Notes under the pieces: generated by a model
Seen by the model: the letters and a program-made list of their open reading frames with translations, nothing else
The model's database searches: none
Told to the model about the DNA's origin: nothing
Assembly: GCA_963716055.1 (NCBI GenBank)
Contig: CAVQSR010000001.1
Location: forward strand, 1,946,855 to 2,010,854
DNA: 64,000 nucleotides
Source: an uncultured Gemmatimonadales bacterium
GTDB lineage: Bacteria > Gemmatimonadota > Gemmatimonadetes > Gemmatimonadales > GWC2-71-9
Direction of reading: 5' to 3'
Shown here: in pieces, positions 7,235 to 32,297 of the stretch
Numbering within the stretch: the first letter of the stretch is position 1
Layout: every line of letters begins with the position of its first letter
Made by a program: the position numbers and the translations under genes

Positions 7235-7317
7235 TGCCCGAGGAGAGAGTCGAACTCTCACGCCGTTGCCGGCACGGGATTTTGAGTCCCGCGTGTCTGC
7301 CATTCCACCACTCGGGC
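7235..7317 (-). tRNA. tRNA-Leu (anticodon CAA)
   Basis: Folded by hand. Acceptor stem GCCCGAG/CTCGGGC. 3-bp D stem. Anticodon stem CGGGA/TCCCG with loop CTCAAAA. Long variable arm GCCG-GCAA-CGGC. T arm GAGAG-TTCGACT-CTCTC. Discriminator A. CCA is not encoded. Confidence 0.9.
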
Positions 7318-13051: not shown

Positions 13052-14484
13052 GTGCGCACCGATCTGTTCATCAACAACGAGTGGCGGCCCGCGGCGTCGG
13101 GCCGCCGCTTTCCGGTCGAGAATCCGGCGACCGAGGAGATCCTGGCCGAGGTCGCCGAGGGCGACGCGGCCGATATCGACGCGGCGGTCGCCGCCGCCCG
13201 CGCGTGCTTCGAGTCGGATGCGTGGCGCGGGCTCTCCGGGCGCCGGCGGGGCCGCCTGCTCGCGCGCGCCGCCGACCTGCTCGACGCGCGCCTCGACGAG
13301 TTCGCGCGCCTCGAGACGGCGCACAACGGCAAGACGCTGTTCGAGTCGAAGATCGAAGTGGGCATGACCGCCGCCACGCTGCGCTACTACGCCGGCTGGG
13401 CGGACAAGATCACCGGGGACACCCTGCCCGCCGACGGCCCGTTCTTCATCTACACGCTGCGCGAGCCGATCGGAGTGGTCGGTGCCATCGTCCCGTGGAA
13501 CTTCCCGCTCAACATCGCCAGCTGGAAGGTGGCGCCGGCCCTCGCCGCCGGCTGCACCGTGGTGCTCAAGCCCGCGTCGGAGACGCCGCTCACGGCCCTG
13601 CTGTTCGGCGAGATCGCCCTCGAAGCCGGATTTCCCCCCGGCGCCTGCAATGTCGTCGCCGGAGGCGGCACCACGGCGGGTGCCGCGCTCGTCCGCCATC
13701 CGGGCGTCGACAAGATCGCGTTCACGGGCTCGACCGAGGTGGGGCGCGCGATCATGCGCGAAGCCGCGGGCACGAACAAGCGCGTGACGCTCGAGCTGGG
13801 CGGCAAGAGCCCGAACATCGTGTTCGCCGACGCGGACCTCAAGGCTGCCGCGCGTGGGGTCCAGACGGGGATCTTCTACGGCAAGGGCGAAGTGTGCGCG
13901 GCCGGCTCCCGGCTCCTCGTCGAGCGCGCCGCTCACGACCAGATGGTCGAGCTCCTCGCCGAAGGGGCGCGCAAGCTGACCCCCGGCGATCCGCTGGACA
14001 AGCACACGCGGATGGGTGCGCTCGTCTCGAAGAAACAGCAGATGAGCGTCCTGGGCTACGTCGAGCGCGGCAAGGCCGAGGGCGCCCGCTGGTCGCCGGC
14101 GGCAACCCCGTGCAGCACAACGGCAAGGGCTACTTCGTCGAGGCCACGGTGTTCGACGACGTCACGCCGGACATGACGATCGCCCGCGAGGAGATCTTCG
14201 GGCCGGTGCTCGCGGTGCTGACGTTCGACGACGTGGACGAGGGACTGGCGCTCGCGAACCAGACGATCTACGGCCTGGCGGCGGGCATCTGGACGCGCGA
14301 CATCGCCAAGGCGCACCGCGTCGCGCGTGCCGTCCGCGCGGGCACGGTCTGGATCAACACCTACAACTTCTACGATTCCGGGGCGCCGTTCGGCGGGTTC
14401 AAGGCGTCGGGCTTCGGCCGCGACCTGGGCCGCGACGCCCTCGACGGGTACCTCGAGACGAAGACGGTGTGGGTGGGGCTCTGA
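13052..14484 (+). pseudogene. aldehyde dehydrogenase with an interrupted reading frame (1-nt deletion at about 14089): pseudogene or sequence error
   Basis: The frame from GTG 13052 carries FPVENPATEE..., VVLKPASETPLTAL, ELGGKSPNIVF and GEVCAAGSRLLV up to ..GKAEGAR. The protein continues as LVAGGNPV...EEIFGPVL...GFKASGFGR in the -1 frame. The codons cgc and ctg share base 14089. Confidence 0.82.
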
Positions 14485-14491
14485 CCGCCCG

Positions 14492-15672
14492 GTGACCGCG
14501 GCCTTCATCCGGGCGGCCGTGCGCACGCCGGTCGGACGGCACGGCGGCGCGCTGGCCGGCGTCCGCCCGGACGACCTCGCGGCCGTGGCCGTCAGGGCGC
14601 TGGTCGAGCGCACCGGCATCGACCCGGCCGCGATCGACGACGTGATTCTGGGGTGCACCAACGGCGCGGGCGAGGACAACCGCAATGTGGCGCGCATGGC
14701 GGCGCTGCTCGCGGGCCTGCCGGTCGAGGTGCCGGGCCAGACGATCAACCGGCTGTGCGGCTCCGGGCTCCAGGCCGTCGCGAGCGCCGCGCAGGCGATC
14801 AAGGCCGGCGAGGGGGAGACTGTTCGTGGCGGGCGGCGTCGAGCGCATGACCCGGGCCCCCTACGTCATGCTCAAGACCGGCGACCCGTGGAGCCGCCGT
14901 CCGCCGGAGATCGCCGACACGACCGTCGGCTGGCGCTTCACCAACCCCCGGATGTCCGCCGGAGTGGACCATCGGACTGGGCGAGACGGCGGAGGTGGTC
15001 GCCGACCGCTACGGCATCACGCGCGAGGAGCAGGACGCCTTCGCGCTCGAGAGCCAGCGGCGGGCGGCGCGCGCCCAGGCCGACGGCGCGTTCGCCGACG
15101 AGATCGTGCCGGTGCCGCTCCCCGAACGGCGACCGCGTTCACGGTGGACGAACATCCCCGTCCCGACGTCACACGCGCGAAGCTCGGTGCCGCTGCGGCC
15201 GGCGTTCCGCCCGGACGGCACCGTCACCGCCGGGAAGCTCGAGCGGCATCAACGATGGCGCGGCGGCCCTGCTCGTCACGGCCGTCCGCGGGACCGACCG
15301 ACGCCGCTGGCCCGGATCGTGACCACCGCGGTGGCGGGCGTCGATCCCGCGTGCATGGGCCTCGGTCCGGTGCCCGCCACGCGGAAGGCGCTGGCGCGCG
15401 CCGGCCTCACGATCGACGAGATCGATCTCGTGGAGCTGAACGAGGCGTTCGCCGCCCAGGCGATCGCGTGCATCCGGGACCTCGCGCTCGATCCGGCGAA
15501 GGTGAACATCTACGGCGGCGCCATCGCGCTGGGCCACCCGCTCGGCTGCTCCGGAGCCAAGATCCTGGCGACCCTGGTGCACGCGCTGCGGCGCACGGGC
15601 GGCCGGCTGGGGCTCGCCACGATGTGCATCGGCGTCGGCCAGGGCATCGCGATGATCGTGGAGCGGACGTGA
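14492..15672 (+). pseudogene. acetyl-CoA acyltransferase / 3-oxoadipyl-CoA thiolase (PaaJ-like), with at least 6 frame disruptions
   Basis: Thiolase segments appear in alternating frames. In order they read VTAAFIRAAVRTPVGR..NRLCGSGLQAV..AGEGE, LFVAGGVERMTRAPYVM..GWRFTNPRMSA, (E)[79 protein letters not shown] and PLARIV..NEAFAAQ..GGAIALGHPLGCSGA. Confidence 0.82.
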
Positions 15673-23808: not shown

Positions 23809-25013
23809 TCGCCCTGCTGCTCGCCCAGACGATCGCCATCACCGGCGCCACCGTGCACCCGGTATCGGGGCCGACGCTCGAGAACGCGACCGTCGTGATC
23901 CGGGATGGGATGATCGCGGCCGTGGGTCGGGACGTCCGGGTCCCGGCGGGCGCACGCGTCATCGACGCGCGCGGGAAGGTGGTCACGCCGGGGCTGTTCA
24001 ACGGCGGTACGCAGCTGGGGTTGACCGAGATCTCGGCGGTCGCGAGCAACAACGAAGGCAGCCTGTCGGGCAACGATGTGGCGGCGTCGTTCCACGTCGC
24101 GGCGGGCATCAACCCGGCCTCGCAGCTGATCCCGGTCACGCGGGTGGAAGGCGTGACCACGGTCCTCACCGCGCCGAGCGGCGGCCTCATCGCCGGCCAG
24201 GCCGTGGTGATCGATCTCGCCGGCGCGACCGTGGGCGAGATGCTGGCCGCCCCGGTCGCGCTGATGGTGGCGAACATCGCGGCGAAACAAGCGGGGGGCG
24301 GGTCGCGCGCGGGCGTGGCGGCCCGGCTGCGGCAGGTGCTCGACGACGCCCGCGAGTACCAGCGGCGGCGCGGCGACTACCAGCGGGCCCAAATGCAGCC
24401 CCTCGCCGCGCCCGCGGCGGACCTGGCGGCGCTGCAACCCGTCCTCGCCGGCACCCTGCCGCTCGCGATCGACGCGGATCGCAAGAGCGACATCCAGGCC
24501 GCGCTCCGGCTCGGGGCGGATTACGGCCTCCGGCTCGTCATCGCGGGCGGCGCGGAGGCCTGGATGGTGGCCGACGAGCTGGCGGCCGCGAAGGTCCCGG
24601 TCGTTCTCTCCCCGCTCACGAACATCCCCAGCTACCGCGCGCCGGGCGCGCGCTACGGCAACGCCGCGTTGCTGCACCGTGCCGGCGTCCGCGTCGCGTT
24701 CACCGTGGGGGGCGACGGCTCGCACAACAGCCGGCTGCTCAAGCAGGAGGCCGGCAACGCCGTTAGCTACGGTCTGCCGTGGGACGCGGCGCTCCGCGCG
24801 GTCACGCTCACCCCCGCGGAGCTCTACGGGTTGGGCGACCGCTACGGCTCGCTCGACCCGGGCAAAGTGGCCAACGTCGTCGTGTGGAGCGGCGACCCGT
24901 TCGAATTCGCGACCGCCGTGGAGCACGTCTTCATTCGCGGACGCGAGATCCCGCTCACCAGCCGGCAGACGGAGCTGCTCGAGCGCTACCGCAGCCTGCC
25001 GCCGAAGTACTAG
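23805..25013 (+). CDS. amidohydrolase family protein (402 aa)
   Basis: MIALLLAQTIAITGATVHPVSG...VIRDGMIAAVG...VVTPGLF... ATG at 23805 overlaps the upstream stop (ATGA). The stop TAG at 25011 is the first triplet of the decamer array. Confidence 0.82.
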   Translation: MIALLLAQTIAITGATVHPVSGPTLENATVVIRDGMIAAVGRDVRVPAGARVIDARGKVVTPGLFNGGTQLGLTEISAVASNNEGSLSGNDVAASFHVAAGINPASQLIPVTRVEGVTTVLTAPSGGLIAGQAVVIDLAGATVGEMLAAPVALMVANIAAKQAGGGSRAGVAARLRQVLDDAREYQRRRGDYQRAQMQPLAAPAADLAALQPVLAGTLPLAIDADRKSDIQAALRLGADYGLRLVIAGGAEAWMVADELAAAKVPVVLSPLTNIPSYRAPGARYGNAALLHRAGVRVAFTVGGDGSHNSRLLKQEAGNAVSYGLPWDAALRAVTLTPAELYGLGDRYGSLDPGKVANVVVWSGDPFEFATAVEHVFIRGREIPLTSRQTELLERYRSLPPKY

Positions 25014-25070
25014 GACGGTAGAAGACGGTAGAGGGCGGTAGAAGACGGTAGAGGGCGGTAGAAGACGGTA
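25011..25070 (+). repeat. tandem array of 6 x 10 bp, GARGRCGGTA (20-bp super-unit gaagacggtagagggcggta)
   Basis: Read directly: taggacggta gaagacggta gagggcggta gaagacggta gagggcggta gaagacggta. TAG recurs every 10 bp. Confidence 0.95.
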
Positions 25071-25129
25071 GTATCGCGGGGCCGCGTTGGGAAACGATGC
25101 CGTCGGCGCCGAAATGATGCTGCTGCGGC

Positions 25130-25519
25130 TTGACCCCCGCGCCATGTTGCCCCGTGTACCCTCACGAGCGCCTCGCGGCTTGGCGGGAAGCCTATCAACT
25201 GACGCTCGCCACCTATCGCGCCACCTCCGCTTTCCCCAAGCACGAGCTGTATGGTCTCACCGCGCAGGCGCGCCGGGCCGCGGTGTCCGTAATCGCGAAC
25301 ATCGCGGAGGGCTCGGCCAAGCGAGGCAGCCGAGAGTTGCGACGTTATCTCGACATCGCCCTGGGATCGATGTCCGAGCTGAGCTGCCTGCTGCAACTGT
25401 CGCGCGACCTTGGCTACATCGCCGCCACCGATGCCGCAGTCCTCAACGATCTCCGCCAGCGCAGCGGCTTCCTGCTGTGGCGACTGTATCGATCGATCGC
25501 GGCGAGAAGCCGGCCGTAG
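25130..25519 (+). CDS. four-helix-bundle protein (23S rRNA intervening-sequence protein / Avd family)
   Basis: LAAWREAYQLTLATYRATSAFPKHELYGLTAQARRAAVSVIANIAEGSAKRGSRELRRYLDIALGSMSELSCLLQLSRDLGYI matches the family hallmarks (FP..E.YGLT.Q.RRAA.S...NIAEG). The track start is TTG at 25130. GTG at 25154 is an equally plausible start. Confidence 0.85.
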   Translation: MTPAPCCPVYPHERLAAWREAYQLTLATYRATSAFPKHELYGLTAQARRAAVSVIANIAEGSAKRGSRELRRYLDIALGSMSELSCLLQLSRDLGYIAATDAAVLNDLRQRSGFLLWRLYRSIAARSRP

Positions 25520-25640
25520 AGCGCTCTACCGCCCACGCCCGCCTGCCCCGACTTGTCCCGACTTGTCCCGACTTCTCCCGACTTCTCCCGACCTCTACCG
25601 ACTTCTCCCGACCTCTACCGACCTCTACCGACTTCTATTC
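25516..25640 (-). repeat. inverted decamer array: palindrome GTAGAGCGCTCTAC, then about 12 units ACYTSTMCCG (minus-strand reading CGGKASARGT)
   Basis: The clean units at 25551-25640 are acttgtcccg x2, acttctcccg x2, acctctaccg, acttctcccg, acctctaccg x2 and acttctattc. Degenerate units occupy 25521-25550. The array overlaps the last codons and the stop of the nitroreductase gene. Confidence 0.93.
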
Positions 25641-26299
25641 CAGACCGCGATCTCCGCCAGCGCCTTGCGCTGCAGGTCCGGCACGGTGGCATCGCCGGCC
25701 GGATATCCCACCGGCAGCAGCACGAAGGGTCGCTCCCACTCCGGGCGCCCGAGGATGCGGTTGAGAAACTCCATCGGGCTCGGTGTGTGCGTCAGCGTGG
25801 CGAGACCCATCGTGTGCAGCGCGGCGATGAGCAGCCCGGTCGCGATCCCGACCGACTCCACCGAGTAGTACGTCTTGCGCTTGGCGCCGCCCGCGCCCGG
25901 CCGCCACGCATGGCGAAACACGACGATCAGGTACGGCGCGATCTCGAGGAACGGCTTGCGCCAATCGGTGCCGAGGGGCGCCAGGTCCTCGAGCCACTCG
26001 GGCGGCGCCCGCCGCTCGTAGAACTCCCGCTCTTCCGCTTCGGCCCCCGCACGGATCTCGCCCTTGAGCCGCGGATCGTCCACGACGACGAACGTCCAAG
26101 GCTGCTGGTGCGCCCCCGAGGGCGCGGTGCCCGCCGTCCGGATGGCGATCTCGATCAGTTCGCGAGGCACGGGGTCACCGCTAAACGACCGCACCGTGCG
26201 CCGCCCGCGCATGGCATCGTGGAACGCGCGGCCGCGCGTGAGCGCCGCGGCGGGAGCGACCCGCTGCGGCCGGTAGGGGATGTGAGGGTATTCGGCCAT
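25625..26299 (-). CDS. nitroreductase family protein (iodotyrosine-deiodinase/BluB-like subgroup)
   Basis: 224 aa with [41 protein letters not shown]... and ...[28 protein letters not shown]. Confidence 0.82.
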
Positions 26300-26352
26300 G
26301 CGGAGGAATGTAGGGAGAAACGCGAACGGCGGCCGGGTTGCCCCGACCGCCG

Positions 26353-26397
26353 TTGTCCGTCTCGTCCGTCTTGTCCGTCTTGTCCGTCTCGTCCGTC
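26353..26397 (-). repeat. tandem array of 5 x 9 bp, GACGGACRA (minus-strand reading)
   Basis: The plus strand reads ttgtccgtc tcgtccgtc ttgtccgtc ttgtccgtc tcgtccgtc. The array begins 2 nt after the rpmA TAG stop. Confidence 0.95.
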
Positions 26398-26399
26398 GC

Positions 26400-26666
26400 C
26401 TAGCCCGCGGCGGGAGCGGGATACACCGAGATTTTGTACCGCTTCTTGTTCTTGTGCTCGAACTTCACGAAGCCGTCCACCGTCGTGAACAACGAGTCGT
26501 CCGTGGCGCGGCGGACGTTGGTTCCCGGATGGAACTTCGTCCCCCGCTGCCGGACGATGATCGAGCCGGCGGTGACGAATTCCCCACCGAACCGTTTCAC
26601 GCCCAGGTACTTGGGCCCCGAGTCCCGGCCGTTGCGCGAGGAGCCGACGCCTTTCTTGTGTGCCAT
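26400..26666 (-). CDS. rpmA: 50S ribosomal protein L27
   Basis: [48 protein letters not shown]. Confidence 0.97.
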
Positions 26667-28847: not shown

Positions 28848-30992
28848 ATGACCACCTCGAACGCCCTGATCACCATGTTCCTTGCTGCCGCCGCCGGGGC
28901 GGGACCGCTGCCTGGCCAGCGCCCGTCCTATCCCGTGACTCCCACCGGACCCGTGGTGGACACCCACCACGGTACCGTGGTGCCCGACCCCTACCGCTGG
29001 CTCGAGGACGTCGACTCGGACGACAGCCGCGCCTGGATCGCGGCTCAGAACCGTGTCACGTTCGGCTGGCTGGACCAAGTGCCCGAGCGCGCCGGGCTGC
29101 GCGAGCGGCTCACGGCATTGTGGGACTACCCGCGGTACGGGACGCCCTTCCGCAAGGGCGGCCGCGTGTTCTTCTACAAGAACGACGGCCTGCAGAACCA
29201 GGCGATCCTGTACACGCAGACGGCGCTCGACGCGCCGCCCGCCGTCCTGCTCGATCCCAACACGCTCTCGCCCGACGGCACGATCGCGTTGACGACCACC
29301 GCGGTCTCCGAAGACGGGCGCCTGCTCGTGTACGGAACGGCGCAGAGCGGGTCCGATTGGAACGAATTCCGCGTGCGCGACGTCGCGACGGGAGCGGATC
29401 GCGTCGATCATCTCCGCTGGATCAAGTTCTCCGGCGCCGCGTGGACGCACGACGGACAGGGGTTCTTCTACAGCCGGTATCCCGAACCCGCCGGCGACAA
29501 CCTCCTGCTCGCCGAGAACCGCCATCAGAAACTGTACTACCACCGGCTCGGCACGCCGCAGGACGCCGATCAGCTCGTGTGGGAACATCCCGATCAACCC
29601 GAGTGGGGTGTGGCCGCGAGCGTGAGTGAGGACGGGCGCTATCTCATCCTGCACATCTGGCTCGGCACCGACCGCCGGAACCGCCTCGCCTACGCCGATC
29701 TGGGCGACCCCCAGCGGCCGGATCTCCGCGCGCCGGCAACCATGCTGCTGGGTGATTTCGACGCGGCCTACGGATTCGTGGGCAACGACGGCCCGGTGTT
29801 CTACTTCCAAACGGACAACGCCGCGCCACGCCAGCGTGTGGTGGCCATCGACACGCGGGCCCCCGACCCATCCGCCTGGCGCACGGTGATCCCCGAGCAG
29901 GCGGATGCCCTGGAGAGTGTCGGAATCATTCACGACACGTTCGTCGCGTCGTACCTGCACGACGCCGCGTCCCGCCTGCGGCTCTTCGCGCTCGACGGGA
30001 CGCCCCGCGCCGATGTCCCGTTGCCCACGCTGGGCTCGCTGGCCGGCATCACCGGGCAGCGGCGGGACCGCGACATGTTCTACGCGTTCACGTCGTTCCT
30101 GTATCCGACGACGATCTTCCGTTACGACTTTGCCACGGCCCGGTCCGAGGTGTTCAAGGCCCCGGAGATCGCCTTCGACCCGAGTGGCTACGTCACCGAG
30201 CAGGTGTTCTACACGAGCAAGGACGGCACGCGAATCCCGATGTTCCTGACGTACCGCAACGGGCTCCGGCGGGACGGGTCGAACCCCACCTATCTGTATG
30301 GGTACGGCGGCTTCAACATCTCATTGACGCCGGCGTTCTCGATCAGCGTCCTGGTGTGGCTCGAGCTGGGGGGGATCTATGCGGTGCCGAACCTGCGCGG
30401 CGGGGCGGAGTACGGGGAGGACTGGCACCAGGCGGGCATGCTCGACCGCAAGCAGAATGTGTTCGACGATTTCATCGCCGCCGCGGAGTACCTGATTCGC
30501 GAAGGGTACACGTCGACGCCCAAGCTGGCGATCGGCGGGGGCTCGAACGGGGGGCTGCTCGTCGGCGCCGCGATGACGCAGCGGCCGGAGCTGTTCGGGG
30601 CCGCGGTGCCGGCGGTCGGCGTGATGGACATGCTGCGCTTCCACAAGTTCACGATCGGCTGGGCCTGGGTGACCGAGTACGGCTCGGCCGACAGCGCGGC
30701 GCAGTTCCCGGTGCTCCACCGCTATTCTCCGTATCACAATCTGCGGTCCGGCACCCGCTACCCGGCGACACTCGTGACGACGGCGGATCACGATGACCGC
30801 GTGGTGCCCGGCCACTCGTTCAAGTTCGCGGCCGCGCTCCAGGCCGCGCAGGCGGGTGACGCCCCGGTCCTGATTCGCATCGAAACCAAGGCGGGGCACG
30901 GCGCGGGCAAGCCCACGACGAAGATCATCGAGGAAGCCGCAGACCGGTGGGCGTTTCTGGTGCGGGTCCTGGGGGTGAGACCGGGAACCTAG
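28848..30992 (+). CDS. prolyl oligopeptidase (S9A family), secreted
   Basis: ATG at 28848 follows GGAG. Signal peptide [27 protein letters not shown], the catalytic [11 protein letters not shown] and DDRV..H motifs. Confidence 0.9.
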
Positions 30993-32209: not shown

Positions 32210-32225
32210 GGCATGCAATATAAGA

Positions 32226-32297
32226 GACGGACAAGACGGACAAGACGGACGAGACGGACGAGACGGACCAGACGGACAAGACGGACGGGACGGACCG
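32226..32297 (+). repeat. tandem array of 8 x 9 bp, GACGGACNN
   Basis: gacggacaa x2, gacggacga x2, gacggacca, gacggacaa, gacggacgg, gacggaccg. The array sits in the divergent intergenic region between the acyl-CoA dehydrogenase and the M28 peptidase. Confidence 0.95.

Follow-up and report, generated by a model that had tools for sequence, protein, structure and literature searches.

A 64,000-nucleotide stretch of the genome of an uncultured Gemmatimonadales bacterium (contig CAVQSR010000001.1, positions 1,946,855 to 2,010,854; hereafter the window) contains, between two convergent protein-coding genes, an open reading frame (ORF) for a small four-helix-bundle (4HB) protein that is bracketed by two opposed arrays of 10-bp tandem repeats. 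Is this arrangement a property of the flanking genes, a set of protein-binding sites, or an element in its own right? We favor the last answer: with a probability of roughly 60%, the locus is one copy of a widespread cassette of the intervening sequence (IVS) type that lies outside rRNA and whose arms and gene are gained, lost and inverted as one unit. The unit is composite (arm, leader, 4HB gene, arm), recurs across phyla, and has arms that covary. Arm polarity is always purine-rich and then pyrimidine-rich, and both arms of a cassette are of one unit type, which differs between lineages. The cassette class is apparently undescribed, as a full-text literature search gave no description of the arms.

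Recurrence was assessed in a metagenome sample of 80 loci picked solely by 4HB homology (48-63% identity), 66 of which had enough flanking sequence. Tandem Repeats Finder placed the gene downstream of a purine-rich array and upstream of a pyrimidine-rich one in 42 of the 66. On inspection, about 20 of the remaining 24 had this layout too, built from units that were longer (18-30 nt) or degenerate, and 4 had one arm only; overall, the layout of purine-rich arm, 4HB gene and pyrimidine-rich arm was present in at least 60 of the 66 loci. Scored by ungapped matches, the two flanks exceeded the 99th percentile of a shuffled null in inverted orientation in 56/66 loci and in direct orientation in 2/66. 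Median distances put the end of the purine-rich arm 75 nt before the ORF and the start of the pyrimidine-rich arm 17 nt after it. Unit length varied by locus (10-mers in 25, 8-mers in 13, 9-mers in 4), with units of 18-30 nt elsewhere and of 7 nt in cyanobacteria, yet the right unit was always the reverse complement of the left one. The complementarity of left and right units averaged 0.90 within a locus versus 0.42 across loci, unit type followed the 4HB clade in a neighbor-joining tree, and a core of G-R-C-G-G and then purines was common to many Gemmatimonadota unit types.

The layout recurs in most of the relatives covered and extends from soil Gemmatimonadota to other phyla. Four loci with 43-47% identical proteins were found in IMG/VR, and all three of those inspected have both arms, one of them in a low-GC genome. 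Plasmid copies were found by tblastn in cyanobacteria and Azospirillum; 11 of 14 plasmid loci inspected carry purine-rich tandem heptamers or octamers upstream and their complement downstream (with unit pairs such as GGGTGTA/TACACCC, GGGAACA/TGTTCCC, GGTGACA/TGTCACC and GGAGATAA/TTATCTCC); a further locus is flanked by direct arrays, and the other two are unclear. Several plasmid cassettes lie inside cas operons among co-directional genes, between cas6 and cas4 or between cas10 and cmr3. In the cyanobacterial plasmids L208, L211 and L227, repeat-armed 4HB genes are wedged among cas genes with 35-100 nt on each side; the flanking heptamer arrays of Pseudanabaena L208 are direct, not inverted (14 x AGCTAAA and 10 x AGCCAAA).

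At orthologous sites, arms and gene behave as one evolutionary unit: it has been gained, lost or replaced, and it occurs in either orientation. The gene order around the window junction is conserved (peptidase, amidohydrolase 1, amidohydrolase 2, junction, L27, L21, RNase G, prolyl oligopeptidase). L214 is the closest relative, with an amidohydrolase that is 89% identical; the stops of its amidohydrolase and nitroreductase genes are 6 nt apart, with neither arms nor ORF between them. Ordinary terminator hairpins stand at this point in L217, L218 and L220, accompanied by 0-3 repeat units, and L074 has an empty repeat hairpin. The cassette is co-directional with the amidohydrolase gene in the window, L020, L137, L147 and L151, and with the L27 gene in L204, L205 and L216, which encode the closest 4HB relatives (72-80% identity), and in at least 14 metagenome loci. 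L219 has the full gene order of the window, nitroreductase included, and flanking proteins 77-79% identical to the window's; its 4HB gene is on the other strand, its 4HB protein is 53% identical, and its arm unit is GACGGGTGAR. The initial annotation of the locus had proposed a comparison of this junction among relatives, and in these the cassette is present, absent or inverted.

Other genes occupy the junction in L221, L122 and L143. The nitroreductase gene is found there only in the window, L214 (86% identity) and L219 (79%); it is absent from L020, L074, L204, L216-L218 and L220, and other lineages have no gene or unrelated genes at this place. The spacer between rpmA and the amidohydrolase gene is therefore a hotspot of gene turnover. 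A second convergent junction, 5 kb away, lies between the prolyl oligopeptidase gene and the next gene. The stops overlap there in the window (CTAG, 30989-30992) and leave no intergenic DNA, L059 has an asymmetric repeat hairpin (279-366), and at least six metagenome loci (L144, L156, L159, L165, L176, L177) have a 4HB cassette.

Arrays of the same kind also occur without the gene, and long arm-only hairpins made of such units are common at the ends of Gemmatimonadales genes. A three-unit pattern scan of one genome per species returned at least 119 loci, mostly in Gemmatimonadales/Gemmatimonadota metagenome-assembled genomes, several of them syntenic with the window at 75-80% nucleotide identity. 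Among array pairs no more than 700 nt apart in the Gemmatimonadales loci, 41 ran purine-then-pyrimidine and 2 the reverse. Their spacers are mostly 5-135 nt, which yields long imperfect hairpins (in L074, a 46-bp stem of -71.7 kcal/mol, z = -8.9), placed 0-6 nt from stop codons and found between convergent (8), co-directional (16) and divergent (4) genes. Other unit families (8-mers, 9-mers, GGCGGTGAAA and others) pair likewise, both arms being of one family. In this array-based sample, all four 10-mer pairs whose spacer is 330-480 nt long have a 4HB ORF inside, intact in the window and L020 and decayed in L079 and L095. The initial annotation had proposed to test arrays for an association with stop codons and 4HB ORFs: arrays do stand at stop codons, and nearly all close 4HB homologs and most distant ones are armed, but many arrays have no 4HB gene.

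It is on this ground that the arrays might be thought to belong to the flanking genes, as a lineage-specific 3'-untranslated region (UTR) or terminator element placed after stop codons (like repetitive extragenic palindromes [REPs], bacterial interspersed mosaic elements [BIMEs] or short tandemly repeated repetitive [STRR] sequences), with the 4HB gene a passenger between facing arrays. This explanation, which we regard as unlikely, accounts well for arrays that abut stop codons directly and in many cases furnish the stop or last codons, for the excess of empty over 4HB-filled purine-then-pyrimidine hairpins in the array-based sample (about 35 to 4), and for solo arrays, most of which are purine-rich in the sense of the upstream gene (15 of the 19 purine-rich ones and 21 of the 28 pyrimidine-rich ones). 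It is likewise in keeping with the 3'UTR of the window's L27 gene, where a 9-mer array is followed by a hairpin, and with the extra junction genes of L122 and L143, each of which has its own purine-rich array after it. It does not, however, explain why at least 90% of 4HB genes are flanked on both sides when the 64-kb window, with about 50 genes, has only about 4 purine/pyrimidine-skewed arrays, nor why the layout is also found between co-directional genes in cyanobacterial cas operons. Also opposed to it are L214, which lacks both arms and ORF together, and L219, in which the arms and the 4HB lineage at this junction are both different.

In the window itself, the module is flush at both ends with the stop codons of the convergent genes (Table 1). 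The amidohydrolase TAG (25011-25013) is the opening triplet of the left arm, and the final codons (..RSR) of the nitroreductase, whose C terminus reads ..WNRSR, and its stop are encoded by units of the right arm. Tandem Repeats Finder delimits the left array at 25014-25071 (period 10, 5.8 copies, 83% matches); a period of 20 fits as well (3.0 copies, 97%), because GAAGA and GAGGG units alternate (CGGTAGAAGA and CGGTAGAGGG in register). The right array is delimited at 25547-25636 (period 10, 9.0 copies, 90% matches), with degenerate units back to about 25521. Its reverse complement, CGGKASARGT, belongs to the unit family of the left array (in register CGGTAGAGGT, CGGGAGAAGT and CGGGACAAGT), and a CGGKASARGN x3 pattern has 11 matches in the window, all within the two arrays, and 0 in 100 shuffles. 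TAG triplets at 25011, 25019, 25029, 25039, 25049, 25059 and 25069 close all three frames; the pyrimidine-rich arm read on the minus strand closes three frames as well, and in the opposite reading direction both arms are open in every frame. The initial annotation had described these features from the letters and ORFs, and it is confirmed on the left array opening with the amidohydrolase stop, on one decamer family in two orientations, on the nitroreductase codons, on TAG in all three frames of both arms in the sense of the preceding gene, and on a 14-bp palindrome that contains the stop of the 4HB ORF; for the right array, its at least nine units and degenerate start hold, and its end falls at 25636/7 rather than 25640.

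Table 1. Coordinates of the cassette, its parts and nearby features within the window
Feature	Position	Strand	Remarks
Cassette module, 627 bp	25011-25637		Purine-rich arm, leader, 4HB gene and pyrimidine-rich arm
Left flank: amidohydrolase "amido2", 402 aa	23805-25013	+	ORF list; Pfam Amidohydro_1/3
Purine-rich arm, 6 x CGGTAGARGR	25011-25071	+	GAAGA/GAGGG units
Leader, 82 nt	25072-25153	+	Boxes GGGAAACGATG (25089-25099) and CGAAATGATG (25110-25119)
4HB gene	25154-25519	+	PF05635/TIGR02436
Palindrome GTAGAGCGCTCTAC	25516-25529	no strand	Purine-type unit at the ORF 3' end and first degenerate pyrimidine-type unit
Pyrimidine-rich arm, about 2.5 degenerate and 9 clean ACYTSTMCCG units	25521-25637	+	
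Right flank: nitroreductase	25625-26299	-	PF00881, E = 9e-23
Solo array after rpmA (L27), about 5 x GACGGACRA	26355-26397 within 26325-26397	-	9-mer related to the cassette unit; purine-rich in L27 sense
Second solo array, 8 x AGACGGACR	32225-32295	+	9-mer family of the rpmA array; between two divergent gene starts

The palindrome holds the 4HB stop codon at 25517-25519, and its fold is not significant in the local context (z = -0.7). The last 4HB codons often approximate one purine-type unit that abuts the first pyrimidine-type unit, and the palindrome of the window is such a feature; a purine-type unit just before the pyrimidine-rich arm is also present in L020, L079 and L145. As for the flanking proteins, a 402-aa database copy of the amidohydrolase (P0129) is 100% identical, and the nitroreductase shows weak similarity to BluB and to the C-terminal part of FbiB.

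The initial annotation had proposed that the arms could pair into a long imperfect stem. Over 56 nt they show 84% complementarity, the minimum-free-energy fold of 25001-25650 pairs them with each other (z = -5.9), and their duplex energy of -76.9 kcal/mol compares with -47.5 +/- 5.0 kcal/mol for mononucleotide shuffles. The potential to form a stem is thus real, but it is not special to this pair of arms: arms with their units in permuted order still reach -70.0 +/- 3.6 kcal/mol, and the window pair falls at the 55th percentile of cross-locus pairings. On these two grounds we reject co-adaptation of the window arm pair; the arms are complementary because both are built from one unit family. 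Some drift between them is visible at the position that precedes CGG, which is occupied by A or G in one arm and by T in its partner.

The leader contains no strong T-run, neither arm of the window is followed by one, and a consensus scan of 24800-26500 for sigma-70 promoters and terminators gave no match; the combination of a GC-rich hairpin with a U-tract that makes an intrinsic terminator is absent from the locus. Read-through from the amidohydrolase gene into the cassette is therefore possible in the window copy. Among 46 relatives, a T-run (at least 6 in 8) stands just after the purine-rich arm in 13 and an A-run in 3, and inspection by eye shows, ahead of the T-run, a short stretch that complements the last unit and gives a terminator-like hairpin. 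Homologous leaders (median 75 nt, right-aligned on the start codon) have a conserved box, AATGGTTA or repeated TTGAY, 35-50 nt before the start codon. The window box GGGAAACGATG is common to L204, with GGAAACGATG as the shared stretch. Judged by their sequence, these leader boxes may function as promoters.

The encoded protein matches PF05635 (100.4 bits, cutoff 33.8, E = 8e-29) and TIGR02436 (93.4 bits, cutoff 24) and has no further domain. The ORF of 129 aa named in the initial annotation corresponds to a start at TTG 25130; a start at GTG 25154 gives 121 aa, as in database copy P0001. The family motif is (G)xxRxxxSxxxNxxE (PMC3936711). Its residues R41, S45, N49 and E52 are invariant or nearly so (alignment A1), and Q38 replaces the G in the 4HB clade of the window. 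Residues 2-99 match XCC0516, the pentameric PDB entry 2GSC (E = 7e-32), and the pI is 10.25; the protein is thus basic and, by this homology, probably pentameric. A PADLOC search with the protein gave no match. The GC content at third codon positions (GC3) of the gene is 0.79 versus 0.88-0.90 in its neighbors, and copies of the gene have decayed in L079, L095, L109 and L216; decay and lower GC3 are signs of a dispensable passenger.

A basic protein beside arrays of repeats brings up binding sites. Under this explanation, which we consider improbable, the arms would be arrays of sites (iterons) on DNA or single-stranded nucleic acid for the 4HB protein or a host protein and would serve autoregulation or cis-action, with arm-only arrays as targets in trans and hairpins as incidental. 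The protein's pI and its homology to the toroidal pentamer 2GSC suit such a role, and the homologous Avd protein of diversity-generating retroelements (DGRs) is a basic pentamer that binds nucleic acid and reverse transcriptase. The tracking of 4HB clade by unit type, the shared core of G-R-C-G-G and purines, typical arrays of 3-9 units, and the lack of an RNA-stem wobble signature are also as expected. Simple site arrays would not, however, need the strict inversion seen around 4HB genes (56/66 versus 2/66), and the cyanobacterial units (GGAGTCA, GGGAACA, GGTGACA) have little in common with the Gemmatimonadota core, even though the proteins are 40-50% identical. The narrower version in the initial annotation, helically phased iterons, fails as a general explanation: spacing is not constant, and periods of 7, 8, 9, 10 and 18-30 nt across homologous cassettes rule out fixed helical phasing.

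The last alternative, which we hold to be highly improbable, sees in the arrays translational stops in three frames or strand-specific transcription valves (purine-rich, C-poor and Rho-resistant in sense; C-rich, resembling Rho utilization [rut] sites and Rho-loading in antisense) that would shield convergent genes from read-through. The window arms do close three frames in the sense of the preceding gene and none in the other direction, array pairs are strongly polar (41:2), the base composition of pyrimidine-rich arms is about 50% C and 10% G, a C-rich unit recurring every 8-10 nt (whence a possible link to Rho), and the rpmA/amidohydrolase and second junctions are both convergent. But of 46 related purine-rich arms, only 19 have stops in all three frames and 13 contain no stop at all, which weakens three-frame stops, also raised in the initial annotation, as a general explanation. 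Cassettes and hairpins lie between co-directional and divergent genes as well, most convergent junctions of the window have no array, and the tie to 4HB genes goes unexplained.

How, then, might a self-contained IVS-type cassette work? The arms would act as a long imperfect stem. In read-through RNA, this stem could be a substrate for RNase III, by analogy with the Coxiella IVS, and the cut would release the cassette from the messages on either side and insulate the convergent pair of genes. At the DNA level, the inverted arms could be a substrate for inversion and for loss of the whole element. The basic, probably pentameric protein would most likely act on the repeats or on the stem.

Several observations weigh against the cassette as we read it. 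It encodes no recombinase or transposase, so the mechanism of mobility is missing; many cassettes have long been at orthologous sites, and vertical inheritance with occasional loss fits as well as mobility does. The pyrimidine-rich arms of other loci pair with the window's purine-rich arm at least as well per nucleotide in 98% of cases. A G-U wobble bias in the sense of the gene is absent, the 161 arm mismatches comprising 38 that are G-U in the sense RNA, 51 that are G-U only in the antisense RNA, and 72 transversions. Where relatives have a T-run terminator, it would block read-through and the arms would not be on a shared transcript, although the window copy has no T-run. The two solo arrays of Table 1 stand away from any 4HB gene. 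Finally, BLAST and tblastn comparisons of 13 empty-hairpin loops with cassette cores and 4HB proteins recovered no remnant, which leaves a parent-derivative link between cassette and empty hairpin unproven.

Some further observations concern the variety of cassettes and arrays. In L127 and L150 (3353-3440 in both), the 4HB gene follows a purine-rich arm and is itself followed by a complete purine-then-pyrimidine hairpin; the downstream arm may have started out as a full hairpin. In L109 (6440-7135), a truncated 4HB ORF runs into an ORF for an S4-like RNA-binding protein, and inverted CAGACGT heptamers bracket the pair; in Arthrospira, an S4-domain gene and 4HB genes belong to one set of strain-unique genes (PMC8700078). 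After rpmA in the window, the 9-mer array is followed by a 13-bp hairpin (26325-26354); the same position has only about 2 units in L214 and a 10-mer hairpin in L074. At 14484-14514, the window has 30 nt and no array where the syntenic L062 (2093-2139) has a 4.7-copy GTCGGTAGAG array at the same intergenic site. In L009 (3219-3411), L069 (679-869) and L106 (7479-7666), a repeat hairpin encloses the Shine-Dalgarno sequence, start codon and twin-arginine-like signal peptide (MSISRRVFVKSGGLAL..) of a minus-strand gene, so that one arm would be in coding sequence and the other in the 5'UTR; judging from this placement, it could be a translational switch or an array tolerated in a signal or linker region. 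Perfect or near-perfect 10-mer arrays such as CGGGAGAAGG and TCGGGAGAGG occur outside Gemmatimonadota in Streptomyces (L011, L019, L036, L048, L078, L119), Acidobacteria (L026), Dehalococcoidia (L116) and Uliginosibacterium (L063).

Among known systems, miniature inverted-repeat transposable elements (MITEs) and other small non-autonomous elements resemble the cassette in being compact, with inverted ends, presence or absence at orthologous sites, and arm-only derivatives; unlike them, it has no recognized target-site duplication or identified cognate transposase, and its ends are tandem arrays of variable length. Integron attC sites were dropped as a candidate, as the hairpins are tandem arrays that presumably lack the conserved attC core sites, and the ribosomal-protein neighborhood around the junction is conserved. 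The REPs, REP doublets that form hairpins (REPINs) and BIMEs of proteobacteria are short, species-specific extragenic repeats, single or in inverted doublets that form hairpins, mostly at gene 3' ends; GTAG is the conserved head of many REPs, and in the system of REPINs and the REP-associated tyrosine transposase (RAYT), one protein gene is flanked by repeats that have many dispersed non-coding copies. The window unit contains GTAG, and dispersed intergenic inverted doublets that form hairpins are present in the Gemmatimonadales loci. Unlike in these systems, the units are not palindromes, the hairpin being formed from two opposed tandem arrays, and the gene encodes a 120-aa helical bundle, not an HuH/Y1 (IS200/IS605-like) transposase.

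The STRR sequences of cyanobacteria, which are heptamer arrays, and the TAACTGA repeats of Beggiatoaceae, Cyanobacteria and Bacteroidetes (PMC4679880) are likewise intergenic head-to-tail arrays, of 7-nt units, with variable copy number, suspected horizontal spread, three-frame stops in one orientation only, and overlap with the ends of upstream ORFs. They are, however, direct arrays mostly just upstream of starts, with one inverted case among 170 sets, whereas the cassette arrays are opposed pairs around one gene family and in Gemmatimonadota consist of GC-rich units of 8-10 nt; the text of that study makes no link to 4HB genes (no mention of four helix, S23 or intervening sequence). The Avd protein of DGRs (PMC10053308) has a homologous four-helix-bundle fold and is of the same family, but the window has no reverse transcriptase or template/variable repeat pair within at least 5 kb, and a DGR was rejected, the genes within about 5 kb being those for an M16 peptidase, two amidohydrolases, the nitroreductase, L27, L21, RNase G and a prolyl oligopeptidase.

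The closest parallel is the 23S rRNA IVS of Coxiella burnetii, Leptospira and Brucella (PMC4990558). In Coxiella, a homologous ORF lies in the loop of a 28-bp stem of terminal inverted repeats that is cut by RNase III, and the 5' region consists of AGAAGA and two or three GACAGAT heptamers, their number depending on the strain (PMC4990558). The cassette shares with these elements the PF05635 family, an ORF in the loop of an inverted-repeat stem (the window arms are terminal inverted repeats that can form one), a total length of about 430-630 nt, a sporadic distribution, decaying ORFs, a GC content below that of the host and, with Coxiella, purine-rich tandem repeats. It differs in that both flanks are protein genes, that the arms are tandem arrays of 60-90 nt rather than a 28-bp stem, that a leader with a promoter-like box and, in 13/46 relatives, a T-run point to independent transcription, and that arm-only copies are scattered in the genome. 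The initial proposal of an IVS-like or mobile cassette fits well with the recurrent design, with presence, absence and inversion at the junction, and with the Coxiella parallel, though not as a true 23S IVS, which would be inserted at a helix tip of a 23S or 16S rRNA gene and which we reject: the flanks are protein genes, and an Rfam search of the whole window at gathering thresholds gave no rRNA and nothing at the locus, its sole match being a tRNA (7235-7317, minus strand).

A bolder version, which we hold to be possible but doubtful, is that repeat-armed 4HB genes are the free-living form of the 23S IVS, with an Avd-like pentamer that binds the arms or stem and drives insertion, inversion or repeat propagation, and with arm-only hairpins as non-autonomous derivatives, a relation like that of RAYT and REPIN with an unrelated protein. 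The ORF of the 23S IVS has been a puzzle since 1993, and an old suggestion, recounted in PMC4990558, gives it a role in the mobility of the element; if the bolder version is true, these genes make up a cross-phylum class of autonomous cassettes. The data also point to a family of long tandem-repeat hairpins at Gemmatimonadota gene ends, of which we found no description in the literature. Genes for 4HB proteins, annotated by the thousands, had previously been read as partners of their surroundings, as with those in cas operons, taken to be cas-associated (PMC3936711). Arms almost everywhere, together with joint gain, loss and flipping, reframe them as self-contained cassettes and tie the rRNA IVSs to a larger class.

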